Positions 10,975 to 17,714 of a stretch of DNA of 64,000 bases are shown here, in pieces. How positions within the stretch are numbered: position 1 is the first letter of the stretch; every line of letters begins with the position of its first letter. The stretch lies in the sequence record PZ402301.1; one strand, 5' to 3'. Source of the DNA: a phage. Both the position numbers and the translations under genes were made by a program. The notes beneath the pieces are model-generated. The model saw only the letters and a program-made list of their open reading frames with translations. It searched no databases and was not told where the DNA came from.

Positions 10975-12144
10975 TTAAAAATATTTTTTAAAACTCATCA
11001 TAACTTTATCATCAACATCATTATCAATCTGTGCTACAAGGTAAGATGACAGTTCTACTTCTTGCGGTGCAGATTGAACATTATCAGAATTAAGATATTC
11101 ACGAATCCAAGGATACGGATGTTTAACCGGAGCATCAGTAATTGGGCATGGAAGACCGCACTGTTTCATACGAGATACAGTTAAGTAATCAATAAAGCTC
11201 CACATGCTATTTGTATTTAATCCAGGAACATCGCCATCTTTAAATAAATGAACTGCCCAATCTTTTTCTTGGCGGTTAACTTCCATGAAAATATCAACTG
11301 CTTCTTGTTCACATTCTTGAGCAATTTTAACCCATTCATCACCATCAGTGCCAAGTTGAAGTTGACGAATAATATATTGGGTGCCTTTAAGGTGAAGCTG
11401 CTCATCACGTGCAATGAACTTCATAATCTTGGCATTACCTTCCATGATTTCCATGTTCTTATGGAAGTTAAAGGTACATGCGAAAGATACATAAAAACGA
11501 ATAGCTTCCAGTGCATTGATTACATGAAGGCAAAGATAAAGAGATTTCATTAGTGCTTGTTTAGTACATTCAACAACTTTGCCTAACTCTTCTTTGCGAA
11601 ATCCTTCTGATAAAATTCCTTCATAATCTTCAACCGCATTCTGATATTCACGAGTCTTAACTAGAACATCATCGTAATAGCGACCAATGGACTCGGCACG
11701 TTTCATAATAGCTTTATCTAATACAATCTCATCAAATACCTTTGACGGATCAGTATAAAGATTTCGCATGATATGGGTATATGAACGGCTGTGAATAGTT
11801 TCACTAAAAGTCCATGTAGCAACCCATGTATCAAGACTTGGGTCTGAAATTAACGACATAAGTACAGCAGACGGTGCACGACCCTGAATGCTATCTAGAA
11901 GTGATTGATACTTCAAGTTATTAGTAAAAATATCTTGCTGATACTGAGGAAGCTTGTTAAATTGCGCAGCATCCATCATTAAGTTTACTTCTTCAGGACG
12001 CCAGAAAAATGATAATTGCTTTTCGGTTAAATCTTCAAAAACTTTATGGCGTTGAATATCATAACGCGCAATACCAAGACCTGAACCGAAGAACATAGGT
12101 TCTTTTAAAACATCAACTGGATTTGTATTAAAAACTGTGCTCAT
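10975..12144 (-). CDS. nrdB: ribonucleotide reductase small (beta) subunit, uninterrupted (no intron)
   Basis: 389-aa continuous ORF; ferritin-like R2 sequence; T4 has a group I intron here, this copy does not. Confidence 0.9.
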   Translation of the reverse strand: MSTVFNTNPVDVLKEPMFFGSGLGIARYDIQRHKVFEDLTEKQLSFFWRPEEVNLMMDAAQFNKLPQYQQDIFTNNLKYQSLLDSIQGRAPSAVLMSLISDPSLDTWVATWTFSETIHSRSYTHIMRNLYTDPSKVFDEIVLDKAIMKRAESIGRYYDDVLVKTREYQNAVEDYEGILSEGFRKEELGKVVECTKQALMKSLYLCLHVINALEAIRFYVSFACTFNFHKNMEIMEGNAKIMKFIARDEQLHLKGTQYIIRQLQLGTDGDEWVKIAQECEQEAVDIFMEVNRQEKDWAVHLFKDGDVPGLNTNSMWSFIDYLTVSRMKQCGLPCPITDAPVKHPYPWIREYLNSDNVQSAPQEVELSSYLVAQIDNDVDDKVMMSFKKYF

Positions 12145-12195: not shown

Positions 12196-14460
12196 TCATA
12201 ATTTACAGGATGAACAATCTTCAGCTTTTGGAGTTTCTATTTCATAATCATCAGTACCAGAACCGTCACGGGTATTATGATAATAGAAATTTTTTCCGCC
12301 AAAATACCAAAAATACAAAAGGTCATCAATCATTACAGACATTGGAACCTTTCCTTTTGGAAAAATCTGCGGGTCATAATATGTATTCGCTGAAGCTGAT
12401 TGACATACCCATTTCAGCATAATAGCTACCTGCGTAAGATAAGGTTTATTTCCTTTCTTAGCTAATTTCCATGTATAATCATATAGGTCTATGTTATGCT
12501 CAATATTGGGCACGACTTGATTAAAGGAACCCTCTTTTGATTCTTTAACAGAGACTGGTCCACGTGGAGGCTCGATACCGTTTGTACTGTTAGAAACTTG
12601 GGAAGATGACTCACATGGCATAAGTGCTGATAATGTGCTATTACGGATGCCAAAGAGCTTAAGGTCTTCCCGCAGCGACGACCAGTCACAAACGTATTTT
12701 GGAGCTGCGATTTGGTCAATCTTTTTATTGTACCAGTCGATAGGTAATTCGCCTCGAGACCAACGAGTGTCTGAATAATATTCGCAAGGTCCTTTTTCTT
12801 TTGCGAGCTTAATGGATGCTTTAATGAGTCCATACTGTAATCTCTCAAATAGTTCATGTGTTAAATCGTTAGCATCTTCATAAGAAGCAAAATTACTTGC
12901 CAGCCAAGCTGCATAGTTAGTAACACCGACGCCAAGGTTTCGACGCTTTTTAGCTTTTTCTGCTTCAGGAACTGGATATCCTTGGTAATCCAAAAGATTA
13001 TCAAGAGCGCGTACTTGAACTTCTGCTAATTCATTAATTTTATCTTGGTCTTGCCAATCGAAGTTATCCAACACAAATGCAGATAACGTACACAATCCAA
13101 TTTCAGCATCAGGACCATTCACGTCATTTGTTGGAATAGCAATTTCACAACACAAGTTGCTCTGACGAATAGGTGCCTTTTCACGAATAAATGGAGTATA
13201 GTTATTCGTATTATCAATGAACTGTACATAAATCCTTGCTGTTCCTGATCGTTCAGTCATGAGCAATTCAAACAGTTCACGGGCTTTAATACGCTTTTTG
13301 CGAATATTAGGGTCTTTTTCTGCGGCTTCGTACAATTCACGGAAACGGTCTTGGTCTTTAAAATAAGAATAATAAAGCTCGCCACCCATTTCGTGTGGAC
13401 TGAACAAAGTAATGTAGTCGTTCTTTCCAAAACGTTCCATCATCAAATCATTCAGTTGAACGCCATAATCCATATGACGGATACGGTTTTCTTCTACACC
13501 TTTGTTATTTTTCAAAACGAGAAGATTTTCAACTTCCAAATGCCAAATAGGATAATAAGCAGTAGCAGCGCCGCCACGAATTCCACCCTGTGAACATGAT
13601 TTAACAGCAGTCTGAAAATGTTTCCAAAAAGGAATAACACCAGTATGACGCACTTCACCTGTGCCAATCTTAGAACCTTCGGCACGAATCATACCAACGT
13701 TAATACCAATTCCAGCGCGTTTGGAGATATATTCAACAATTGAAGCGGAAGCTTTGTTAATAGACTTCAGCGAATCACCTGCTTCAATAACAACACATGA
13801 ACTAAACTGTCGAGTTGGAGTACGGCAACCAGCCATAATAGGAGTTGGTAATGAAATCTGTCGAGTAGATACTGCTTCATAAAAACGAATAACATGTTTT
13901 AATCTATCAACAGGTTCATCTTGATGCAATGCCATTCCAATAGTCATAAATGCAAACTGCGGAGTTTCATAAATTTGACCAGTGGTTTTATCTTTAACGA
14001 GATATTTTTCTTTTAATTGCATCGCCCCGGAATAAGTAAATTCCATATCCCGCTCGTGCTTAATTTTTGATTCTAAAAATGTAATTTCTTCTGCAGAATA
14101 TTTTGACAACAATTCAGGGTCGTATTTACCTTCATTTACACAGTAAGAAATATGGTCAATAAATGAACGTGGTTCATACTGACCGTAAACATGCTTACGA
14201 AGAGCAAACATTAAACAGCGTGCAGCTACGTATTGATAATCAGGCTCTTCAACTGAAATAGAATTCGCAGCAGCCTTAATTACAATAGTCTGAATGTCAT
14301 CAGTTGTCATTCCATCACGGAGATATGATTTAATATTTTCATATAATTCATAAGGATCTACAGATGTTCCTTCAGCTGCCCAAGATAAAACTTTAATAAT
14401 TTTTTGTGGGTCAAAGCTCTGAGAAACACCACTACTTTTGATAACATTAATTAATTGCAT
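12196..14460 (-). CDS. nrdA: ribonucleotide reductase large (alpha) subunit
   Basis: 754 aa, same as T4 NrdA; class I RNR motifs. Confidence 0.95.
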   Translation of the reverse strand: MQLINVIKSSGVSQSFDPQKIIKVLSWAAEGTSVDPYELYENIKSYLRDGMTTDDIQTIVIKAAANSISVEEPDYQYVAARCLMFALRKHVYGQYEPRSFIDHISYCVNEGKYDPELLSKYSAEEITFLESKIKHERDMEFTYSGAMQLKEKYLVKDKTTGQIYETPQFAFMTIGMALHQDEPVDRLKHVIRFYEAVSTRQISLPTPIMAGCRTPTRQFSSCVVIEAGDSLKSINKASASIVEYISKRAGIGINVGMIRAEGSKIGTGEVRHTGVIPFWKHFQTAVKSCSQGGIRGGAATAYYPIWHLEVENLLVLKNNKGVEENRIRHMDYGVQLNDLMMERFGKNDYITLFSPHEMGGELYYSYFKDQDRFRELYEAAEKDPNIRKKRIKARELFELLMTERSGTARIYVQFIDNTNNYTPFIREKAPIRQSNLCCEIAIPTNDVNGPDAEIGLCTLSAFVLDNFDWQDQDKINELAEVQVRALDNLLDYQGYPVPEAEKAKKRRNLGVGVTNYAAWLASNFASYEDANDLTHELFERLQYGLIKASIKLAKEKGPCEYYSDTRWSRGELPIDWYNKKIDQIAAPKYVCDWSSLREDLKLFGIRNSTLSALMPCESSSQVSNSTNGIEPPRGPVSVKESKEGSFNQVVPNIEHNIDLYDYTWKLAKKGNKPYLTQVAIMLKWVCQSASANTYYDPQIFPKGKVPMSVMIDDLLYFWYFGGKNFYYHNTRDGSGTDDYEIETPKAEDCSSCKL

Positions 14461-14777: not shown

Positions 14778-14994
14778 ATTGTTTTTCCGTTAAAACAGTA
14801 ATATCATAATAACAATCAGAAGAAGTTTTAACTGTAGAAATTTTATTATCAAAATACTCACGAGTCATTTTATGAGTATAATATTTTTTGCCATAAATGA
14901 TAATAGGCTGTTCTGGTCCTGGAACTTCTAACTCGCTTGGATTAGGAAGTGTAAAAAGAACGACACCAGAAGTATCCTTAAATCGTAAAATCAT
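14731..14994 (-). CDS. hypothetical protein, about 87 aa (nrdA.2 position; start moved to ATG with GAGAGGA RBS)
   Basis: Internal ATG at 14992-14994 preceded by GAGAGGA. Confidence 0.5.
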
Positions 14995-15017
14995 ATATCC
15001 TCTCAATTAAATTAAAA

Positions 15018-15878
15018 TTACACCGCCATCTTTCCTTTCAAGACACCGTGGGACTGATAATCTTTGAGAACGAAATCCCGTGCTGTCATATATTCAGTTA
15101 ACCAATACATTTGAGTTTCAGTATCGCATTGACTGAATCCATTAGGCCAATTAATACTGAGTTTGCATAGATCCATAGGAGTTCTATTTAATATCTCTTT
15201 GCATTGCTCAATATGGTTAGAATAAATGTGTGTATTACCACCCGAGAATACCAAATCGCCCGGAACTAGTTCACACATGTCAGCAACAATATGCAAAAGA
15301 GCAGCATAACTCGCGATGTTAAATGGAAGACCGAGGAAAACATCTACCGAACGTTGATACCATTGGAGGTCAAGGTATCCGTTACGCACATTAAACTGAT
15401 AGAACATATGACAAGGAGGTAATGCCATCTGCTTGAGTTCAGCTGGATTCCATGCCGACACAATTTGACGCCTATCGTTGGGAAATGTTTTAATACGATT
15501 AACAACTTCTACAATTTGATCTACACCACCAAAATCACGCCACTGTTTTCCGTAAATTGGACCAAGTTCACCGCTATGATAACCTAAGTCTTTGGCCTGG
15601 TTTTCGTAGTTTTCATCCCAAATTGTTTTTCCTGCAATTAAAGATCCATGAGTACGTTGACGTAAATCATTTACGTTAGTACTTCCTGATAAGAACCACA
15701 ATAACTCAGAAATACATGCATTCCAGGCGAGCTTCTTAGTCGTTACTGCAGGAAAACCTTTAGTTAAATCCCAGCGTAATTTAGTACCGAACAAAGCAAT
15801 TGTTCCTGTGCCTGTTCGGTCATCAGTTTCATAGCCATTTTCAAAAATGTCTTTAATTAAATCTTGGTATTGTTTCAT
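15018..15878 (-). CDS. td: thymidylate synthase, uninterrupted (no intron)
   Basis: 286 aa continuous; active-site PCH motif (LPPCHMFYQF); T4 td carries an intron, absent here. Confidence 0.95.
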   Translation of the reverse strand: MKQYQDLIKDIFENGYETDDRTGTGTIALFGTKLRWDLTKGFPAVTTKKLAWNACISELLWFLSGSTNVNDLRQRTHGSLIAGKTIWDENYENQAKDLGYHSGELGPIYGKQWRDFGGVDQIVEVVNRIKTFPNDRRQIVSAWNPAELKQMALPPCHMFYQFNVRNGYLDLQWYQRSVDVFLGLPFNIASYAALLHIVADMCELVPGDLVFSGGNTHIYSNHIEQCKEILNRTPMDLCKLSINWPNGFSQCDTETQMYWLTEYMTARDFVLKDYQSHGVLKGKMAV

Positions 15879-15922
15879 TTAGTACCTTATATAAATTATA
15901 ATACATTTTATGAAGCTAATAA

Positions 15923-16282
15923 TCAATACGGTTTAGCATCAAATTTTCTTTCGATTTCAGGAGTGAAATATAATTCTTTACCACGTTTGGAAAAACGACC
16001 AATAATATGATAATTATTCTCATCAAACGTGATATTACCAATATCCATAGCTTTCAACCAAATATCGATATTTCTATCTAGTTTTATATCAAAATTCCAA
16101 TACGGAGAACTATTACCAAAAATACTACAAGCGGATTCAGTGAAACAACTGCTATAAATCTTGCCTTTAGGAACTACTAATTGATAGACGCCTTTAATAA
16201 ACTGAGGACCCTGCCATTTTGGTTGTTTCGCGTCTTTTTCTAATAGAATAGGGTAATAATTAAAATTCATATTTTCCGCCAC
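15923..16282 (-). CDS. hypothetical protein, 119 aa (115 aa from first ATG), inserted between frd and td
   Basis: ORF begins 8 nt after frd stop with GTG (16280-16282) or ATG (16268-16270); no recognisable motif. Confidence 0.6.
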   Translation of the reverse strand: MAENMNFNYYPILLEKDAKQPKWQGPQFIKGVYQLVVPKGKIYSSCFTESACSIFGNSSPYWNFDIKLDRNIDIWLKAMDIGNITFDENNYHIIGRFSKRGKELYFTPEIERKFDAKPY

Positions 16283-16290
16283 GTGTTATT

Positions 16291-17117
<827 letters not shown>

Positions 17118-17125
17118 ATTATCTC

Positions 17126-17461
17126 CTAATATAAAGGATCGGGAACATATCCACTGGCTTTAATCATTTTGATTAACGTTAGCAGTCCTTTATTAACTGC
17201 TTGTGAGATTTCATTAAAAACTTCATCACTAAAAAGTTCTAACACTCCCTTCTGAACTTTTAATTTACAACCAACAATTTCGTCATCGCCTATAGTAAAT
17301 TCGTTTCCGCCAATTCCACCGAAAAACTTAATTACACCAGTTAACTGTGTTCCACGAGAATATGGGTCGTGTGATAAAGTAATATGAGTCACCCCAGGTA
17401 CAGTTTTAAATTGGCAGCGAATGTTTACTTGTGAAATTCCAGTTACGTGAATGTCAGACAT
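17126..17461 (-). CDS. hypothetical protein, 111 aa
   Basis: ORF track. Confidence 0.55.
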   Translation of the reverse strand: MSDIHVTGISQVNIRCQFKTVPGVTHITLSHDPYSRGTQLTGVIKFFGGIGGNEFTIGDDEIVGCKLKVQKGVLELFSDEVFNEISQAVNKGLLTLIKMIKASGYVPDPLY

Positions 17462-17471
17462 AATATTTTCC

Positions 17472-17714
17472 TCAAACAGACTTTTTCACAATTTTCCAAT
17501 CAGCTTTAAACTGTTCAACGTCAGAATGGTAAATCCAGAATCCTGCGCTTTCTCCATCCTCATAAAGAGGGCATCCATCACATTCATCTTCCCATCCCAT
17601 ATCACGTAAAAGATGTTCAGCTTTTTCAACGAGTTCAGAATCTTTACCGATGATATTAAAATACCATTTACCTTTAACTTCTGAATCTTTGATGCTCTGA
17701 CGTTGTAATCTCAT
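17472..17714 (-). CDS. hypothetical protein, 80 aa
   Basis: ORF track; promoter-like element 17738-17770 upstream. Confidence 0.55.
   Translation of the reverse strand: MRLQRQSIKDSEVKGKWYFNIIGKDSELVEKAEHLLRDMGWEDECDGCPLYEDGESAGFWIYHSDVEQFKADWKIVKKSV

Follow-up and report, generated by a model that had tools for sequence, protein, structure and literature searches.

The frd-td locus of the phage deposited under sequence record PZ402301.1 raises the question of why a gene should lie between two genes that overlap in phage T4, and whether that gene was gained by the one phage or lost by the other. A stretch of 64,000 nucleotides (the window) has been analysed, which overall belongs to Tequatrovirus, sharing about 96% identity over 25 kb with the closest relatives in GenBank, and whose frd-td stretch is 99.5% identical to that of Citrobacter phage CrRp10. 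The three genes of the locus are read from the minus strand. The upstream neighbour, annotated as frd in relatives and encoding dihydrofolate reductase (DHFR), is a 193-aa open reading frame (ORF) at 16291..16872, with a TGA stop at 16293-16291; the downstream neighbour, td, encodes thymidylate synthase (TS) and occupies 15018..15878. Between them lies td.1, a coding sequence of 115 aa at 15923..16270 that extends from an ATG at 16270 to a TGA stop at 15925-15923. In T4 (NC_000866), frd spans 145109-145690 and the td end is at 145112, so that the two genes overlap by 4 nt with the sequence tataaATGAaacaat. A preliminary description of the locus had named an ATGA overlap of frd and td in T4, had placed an ORF here between an frd end at 16291 and a td start at 15878, and had called this td intronless. 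The overlap is borne out by the T4 coordinates and the junction sequence, all the positions match the sequence, and td is an uninterrupted 286-aa frame alignable with the joined product of the two td exons of T4, while an Rfam scan of the entire window detected no group I intron and no other structured RNA family. The explanation favoured here, to which a probability of roughly 0.4 is assigned as a whole, is that td.1 is a real gene of the early region, transcribed together with frd and td and belonging to a family long resident between them, and that its product would be a non-catalytic binding protein tied to DHFR and TS.

The reality of the gene and its identity as td.1 can be regarded as nearly certain. 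Phages T2H and T6 (AY262132, AY262134; ABI48932.1) carry an annotated 'td.1 hypothetical protein' to which the window protein shows 98.3% identity; the two differ at one or two residues and have in common the 115-aa length, the ATG start and the position between frd and td. The gene corresponds to RB32ORF229c, and its product matches PHROG 1928 ('unknown function') over residues 8-115 with E=4.4e-35. The exact protein of the window is recorded only in raw-read assemblies, and the gene is found in about 590 phage records, about 360 of them at more than 90% identity and about 230 more at less than 60%. By tblastn, 592 phage records match, and in 589 of these the match spans at least 80% of the protein. 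The ratio of non-synonymous to synonymous substitution rates (dN/dS) was obtained from comparisons between the window and six relatives (RB32, CM8, UFV09, JoYop, Shf125875 and NHEP29). Across these comparisons td.1 displays 12-30 synonymous against 2-10 non-synonymous differences and a dN/dS of 0.016-0.062, the corresponding values being 0.19-0.31 for frd and 0.025-0.14 for td, which places td.1 under stronger purifying selection than frd and, in five of the six comparisons, under selection at least as strong as that on td. The possibility raised in the preliminary description that the frame might lack a coding signature in relatives is not the case, the signature being strong. Although the lack of any known domain and an AT-rich region, where ORFs arise easily, would suit a chance or decaying frame without a functional product, such a frame has a negligible probability: it is already refuted by the substitution pattern, and it is further opposed by the full-length conservation in 589 of the 592 records, by invariant motifs kept in homologues of 30-45% identity and by a confident structure prediction.

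It follows from these records that td.1 is an already catalogued and common T-even gene, not a novel one. The preliminary description had found no recognisable family for the ORF, which holds for the domain databases, since sequence searches of Pfam, NCBIfam and PDB gave no match with either the single protein or a 30-member set, but fails in that the protein is annotated as td.1 and belongs to PHROG 1928. Likewise, its alternative that the ORF might be a common conserved T-even gene of known function is right as to frequency and conservation but not as to function, none having been assigned. Among 30 relatives, Pfam yielded scattered single-member matches only, with E values of 0.01 or weaker; the source names in the td.1 protein cluster are all 'hypothetical protein', and full-text literature searches found no paper discussing td.1, RB32ORF229c or PHROG 1928. 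Some GenBank records label the gene as an enzyme. The label 'homing endonuclease' was rejected on account of the absence of a GIY-YIG, HNH, LAGLIDADG or similar nuclease domain, and the labels 'dihydrofolate reductase' and 'glucose-1-phosphate adenylyltransferase' for want of any Pfam or NCBIfam match; these last two appear to be annotation spill-over.

The distribution of the family is narrow and its position nearly constant. An exhaustive search of 1.84 billion representative proteins with a hidden Markov model (HMM) of the td.1 family returned 22 matches, 20 of them 95-116 aa long; the other two (321 and 380 aa, the former from a mussel genome) match marginally and in fragments and seem to be spurious. 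Every named member belongs to a T4-like phage of Enterobacterales, with hosts in Escherichia, Shigella, Klebsiella, Enterobacter, Citrobacter, Erwinia, Pectobacterium, Kosakonia, Serratia and Salmonella. In 12 of 13 divergent genomic contexts the family lies between DHFR and TS, as it does in the window; these comprise Kanagawavirus, a Klebsiella Jiaodavirus-like phage, Roskildevirus, Moonvirus, Marfavirus, Gelderlandvirus, Winklervirus, Mosigvirus-type phages and four metagenomic T4-like contigs. The DHFR-TS interval of at least 10 genera of T4-like phages holds the family, in one to three tandem copies. The second and third ORFs in this interval are td.1 paralogues (hhalign probability 99.5%, E=1.3e-22), and hmmsearch recovered such paralogues in four more loci, one of them with three tandem copies; all these ORFs are assigned to PHROG 1928. 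The largest array, between DHFR and TS of a metagenomic contig from SRR28387184 (L021:2245-3288), consists of ORFs of 148, 106 and 95 aa. The paralogues of Kanagawavirus, Moonvirus, Winklervirus, Marfavirus, Gelderlandvirus and Roskildevirus share the motifs QKKW, HG[IL]Y and GRFxKxGxxxxF, measure 93-148 aa and carry an insertion (PTIEQYKRNP) after strand 1, whereas Tequatrovirus has a single copy; no second member of the family was found elsewhere in the window.

When proteins of other genera are compared with those of the window, Frd is 47-54% identical at the amino-acid level, Td.1 32-45% and Td 70-79%. The three genes therefore diverge in step, which is the pattern expected from their joint descent. 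On the comparison with NHEP29, whose Td.1 is 93% identical to that of the window while its Frd reaches only 58%, td.1 is also a gene that moves between lineages by recombination, within Tequatrovirus and Mosigvirus. Within Tequatrovirus proper, the identity of td.1 (about 95%) equals the local background.

The longest frame of td.1, 119 aa at 15923..16282, includes a GTG at 16280..16282, 8 nt past the frd stop. The preliminary description had offered this GTG or the ATG 12 nt further on as start; both codons stand where it put them, but the ATG at 16270 is probably the one in use and the GTG is an unlikely start. This assignment follows from the annotation of T2H td.1 from the equivalent ATG, from the alignment of homologue N-termini to the equivalent methionine, and from the presence of GGCGGA 5-10 nt upstream of the ATG, no sequence like a Shine-Dalgarno (SD) element preceding the GTG. 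It follows as well from a 1-nt deletion in the GTG-ATG interval of CM8 and UFV09, which sends the GTG frame into a TGA; on this lost frame and the missing SD-like sequence the 119-aa version was rejected as probably not used. The 20-nt spacer between frd and td.1 (16271..16290) has GGCGGA at 16275-16280 as the likely ribosome-binding site, and its GGCGGAAAATATG recurs in JoYop and Shf125875, whose frd frame continues across it. In these two phages (L013:630-1247 and L014:906-1523, respectively) the frd stop is lost and Frd gains 12 residues (NEIATGGKYEF) encoded by the spacer and by 11 nt into td.1. NHEP29 has no spacer at all, its frd overlapping td.1 by ATGA; three types of frd/td.1 junction are found around a nearly identical td.1. 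In several genera, ATGA or overlapping stop/start codons join td.1 to both frd and td.

On the other side of the gene, the 44-nt spacer between td.1 and td (15879..15922) is 100% identical in RB32, CM8 and UFV09, the td.1 coding sequence being about 95% identical; in JoYop and Mosigvirus-type phages a spacer of about 13 nt takes its place. The 44-nt spacer contains a sigma-70-like TTGATT-17-TATTAT together with a MotA-box-like AGCTTCA, and may be a candidate td promoter. It gave one promoter-like match, of a kind no commoner than in shuffled sequence, and no terminator-like site was detected across positions 14800-17600 of the window, a scan that carried little information. The accessory cargo of the preliminary description, if taken as a self-standing unit, finds no backing here: measured against a moron, with its own promoter and terminator, td.1 has no terminator and a promoter signal not above chance, and it is packed together with frd and td. 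By this layout td.1 is not an autonomous cargo unit but a gene set close against frd and td or coupled to them in translation.

Whether td.1 was gained by the window lineage or lost by T4 has to be judged from the alleles of the junction. The td.1 segment is bounded on the minus strand by two copies of a 9-bp direct repeat, TAAATGAAA, the upstream one at 16289..16297 containing the frd stop and the downstream one at 15873..15881 containing the td start. The repeat is perfect over 9 bp and, with imperfect extensions to 16283 and 15867, identical at 13 of 15 positions, and the annotators of RB32 had already recorded their gene as 'flanked by 9 bp repeat'. The T4 junction, tataaATGAaacaatacc, amounts to exactly one copy of TAAATGAAA. 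The window has 8 copies of this 9-mer where 3.8 would be expected; it is a common stop/start motif of gene boundaries, and the 6-nt extension matches at 4 of 6 positions, with an estimated p of about 0.05. A flanking repeat so common, with an extension so marginal, does not sustain the idea that it proves insertion with duplication of a target site; its structure fits an insertion with duplication and a deletion between repeats alike.

In an evenly spaced sample of 60 of the 515 records matching the T4 junction, 4 have the empty junction (T4 records, vB_EcoM_112 and HY03), about 40 carry the 416-bp td.1 segment and about 11 carry a segment of 206 bp, all of these being rough counts drawn from summary numbers and row samples that take no account of redundant or related records. 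In the 206-bp segment lies an unrelated 68-aa ORF (PHROG 9550, unknown function), joined to frd by ATGA and to td by TAATG, as in phage Shinka (L016:451-657). This allele is present in roughly 100-145 Tequatrovirus records, among them Sf21, SHFML-26, pSs-1 and PYps11T; its ORF has no Pfam match, though one record labels it DUF4858, and an origin as a td.1 remnant was ruled out by an hhalign probability of 0.1%. Read from these records, the frd-td junction in Tequatrovirus is a cassette site with three alleles, namely td.1, the 68-aa ORF and the empty state. It resembles the variable small-ORF cassette sites of T4-like genomes, where alternative contents are joined precisely at stop/start motifs. 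Unlike typical variable ORFs, td.1 occupies a site kept across many genera, experiences very strong purifying selection and lacks a promoter or terminator of its own.

It is probable that the td.1 family is an ancient resident of the DHFR-TS interval and that T4 represents a loss state. The T4 junction is the rare state because at least 10 genera have homologues between DHFR and TS that co-diverge with both genes. The ATGA overlap of T4 would then be a derived allele, arising most simply if the DNA between two TAAATGAAA stop/start repeats was lost. The opposite history, in which td.1 entered an ancestral T4-like ATGA junction as a recent cargo cassette within Tequatrovirus, is considered unlikely. 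The perfect 9-bp repeat with its extended 13/15 match, as noted for RB32, would suit it, and so would the likeness of the upstream copy to a vestigial td start (ATGAAATAACAC compared with ATGAAACAATAC), the NHEP29 td.1, which forms an island of high identity in diverged flanks and so marks the gene as mobile, and the unrelated ORF found at the same site in other phages. This history nevertheless has to face a family located in the same interval of at least 10 genera and co-diverging with frd and td, an empty site that is rare and mostly that of T4 itself, a repeat that is a common stop/start motif with a barely significant extension, and an identity of td.1 within Tequatrovirus that equals the genomic background. 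The view of td.1 as inserted accessory cargo, advanced in the preliminary description, is thereby kept only in part: there is an extra segment relative to T4, at a polymorphic cassette site, but the direction of the change is probably the reverse.

At the structural level, AlphaFold2 run on an alignment of 27 sequences predicts the Td.1 fold with a mean predicted local distance difference test score (pLDDT) of 91.9 and a predicted template modelling score (pTM) of 0.85, a 4-sequence alignment having given a poor model (pLDDT 56). The order of elements assigned by DSSP is E6-12, E27-34, E62-64, H68-76, E80-82/86-96 and E99-104. This predicted b1-b2-b3-helix-b4-b5 succession matches the strand order of the oligonucleotide/oligosaccharide-binding (OB) fold, known from RPA, SSB, Teb1, Cdc13, S1 and HIN. 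OB domains figure frequently among the weak structural matches of the model, which has no significant similarity to solved OB domains, including those that bind nucleic acid, and no significant match to any fold among solved structures. Comparison with the viral structures of BFVD retrieved uncharacterised phage proteins only (family members, their paralogues and weak, partial hits from Aeromonas phages). In alignments of 27-30 sequences, residues Q16, W19, G27, G91, K95 and G97 are invariant and L9, Y29, N79, F93 and F102 are at least 90% conserved; the family motif (Q16, W19, G27, Y29, N79, G91-R-F-x-K95-x-G97 and F102) is present in the window protein. Judged by strand order, these conserved residues would fall in the L12 loop, strand 2 and the strand 4-5 hairpin, the elements of the usual OB binding face. 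Td.1 is a protein of roughly 13 kDa with an isoelectric point (pI) of 8.8; 24 of 27 family members have a pI of 7.7-9.4 and the remaining three one of 6.6-6.9.

Other features of the neighbourhood differ among the relatives as well. The notion that a phage has either td.1 or the td intron with I-TevI, but never the two together, was ruled out, since 79 records, RB3 and PST included, have both; the 68-aa allele occurs together with the td intron in 58 records, these counts being rough in the same way as those of the junction alleles. In the 3' part of td (window 15020-15380), identity to RB32, CM8 and UFV09 drops from about 90% to 55-70% over 15320-15380, an interval that contains the T4 intron position (about 15329), and stays low to the end of td, the JoYop sequence being 93-100% identical throughout this part. 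The pattern suggests alternative exon-2 alleles, left perhaps by intron homing or loss. Within frd, a hypervariable patch at 16520-16640, corresponding to Frd residues around 93-123, has about 51% nucleotide identity to RB32, UFV09, JoYop and Shf125875, in flanks that are 93-100% identical. Two small genes on the minus strand lie between frd and frd.1 (DUF5417, 17472-17714): an 81-aa ORF at 16872-17117 (PHROG 3183, no Pfam match), which runs into the start of frd, and, at 17126-17461, the gene of a 111-aa DUF7247 protein. T4 has neither, which makes the surroundings of its frd a reduced form of those seen in the window and in other genera. Further along the same strand, nrdA (12196-14460) is followed after a gap of 51 nt by a 389-aa ORF (10975-12144) that is a candidate nrdB, and the phage seems to be without mobE, nrdB.1 and the nrdB intron that T4 has there.

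With regard to function, Td.1 is proposed to be a non-catalytic, mildly basic beta-barrel with the strand order of an OB fold, in which the conserved aromatic and basic residues Q16, W19, Y29, R92, F93 and K95 might form a ligand-binding face, as far as topology indicates. Such a protein would be a binding or adaptor protein acting with the enzymes of the thymidylate cycle, for example as a tether or modulator of DHFR and TS in the machinery of deoxyribonucleoside triphosphate (dNTP) synthesis, possibly through nucleic acid. In T4, Frd and Td are described as assembling with further enzymes into a dNTP synthetase complex that is connected to the replication apparatus. A partnership with DHFR and TS is proposed because of the lasting position and duplication of the family between the two genes, its co-divergence with them and its aromatic and basic residues at OB-like positions; taken separately, this OB-like binding function linked to DHFR and TS is a tentative proposal that is more doubtful than secure. 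The stronger version, according to which the family is an unrecognised OB-like, non-catalytic partner of DHFR and TS and a new structural family, missed through decades of biochemical work because T4 is among the few phages that deleted the gene, is unlikely. Several observations weigh against the favoured explanation. T4 lacks td.1 by nature, which makes the gene dispensable and not essential, and the absence of td.1 from T4 and about 30% of Tequatrovirus records points to an auxiliary role. Gene order is generally well kept in T4-like phages, so that the position between frd and td may simply be inherited. The only member outside the DHFR-TS interval (P0024, L020:1248-1577, on the T4-like ENA contig k141_230232) overlaps the start of a gene for an RlaP-family (PF10127) nucleotidyltransferase, and the supposed OB binding face is placed by topology only. 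The hypervariable patch of frd does not co-vary with td.1, as T4, without td.1, and CM8, with it, share one allele of the patch. Finally, the flanking repeat leaves the direction of change at the junction undecided, because its 9-mer is common at gene boundaries and extends only marginally beyond 9 bp.

The main rival holds that Td.1 is a host-directed effector, active in counter-defence or host takeover, whose position between frd and td is merely inherited. This is possible, with the odds against it. The gene is small and early, has no homologue of known function, passes between genera by recombination, ranges from one to three copies, has one member outside the frd-td interval and, within a single genus, is present, absent or swapped for the 68-aa ORF at a cassette hotspot; very strong purifying selection would suit a conserved host target. 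Counter-defence genes, however, rarely hold one locus across at least 10 genera while co-diverging with housekeeping neighbours, no trigger or target is known, and the basic pI of Td.1 speaks against the DNA-mimic type of anti-restriction protein, represented by Ocr and Arn, whose low pI it does not share. A further reading makes Td.1 an OB-like protein that binds RNA or single-stranded DNA and regulates its own operon, for instance the translation of td or frd mRNA. The OB-like strand order, the invariant aromatic and basic residues, the basic pI, the tight translational coupling with frd and td and the perfectly conserved 44-nt spacer before td would be in keeping with such a regulator, but the model has no significant structural match to a nucleic-acid-binding OB domain, the genera in which td.1 directly overlaps td offer no spacer to act on, and T4 expresses td without td.1, all of which render this reading improbable.

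In itself td.1 matters little, being already catalogued in genomes of the T4 type that are full of small uncharacterised ORFs. What the locus does indicate is that T4, the reference phage, is an outlier at this junction, and that the picture of the frd-td operon based on T4 is consequently incomplete for most T-even phages. A family with a confidently predicted fold has thereby stayed out of sight for research centred on T4. If it were true that Td.1 interacts with the enzymes of the thymidylate cycle, the protein would be a new component for the classic model of a metabolic enzyme complex.
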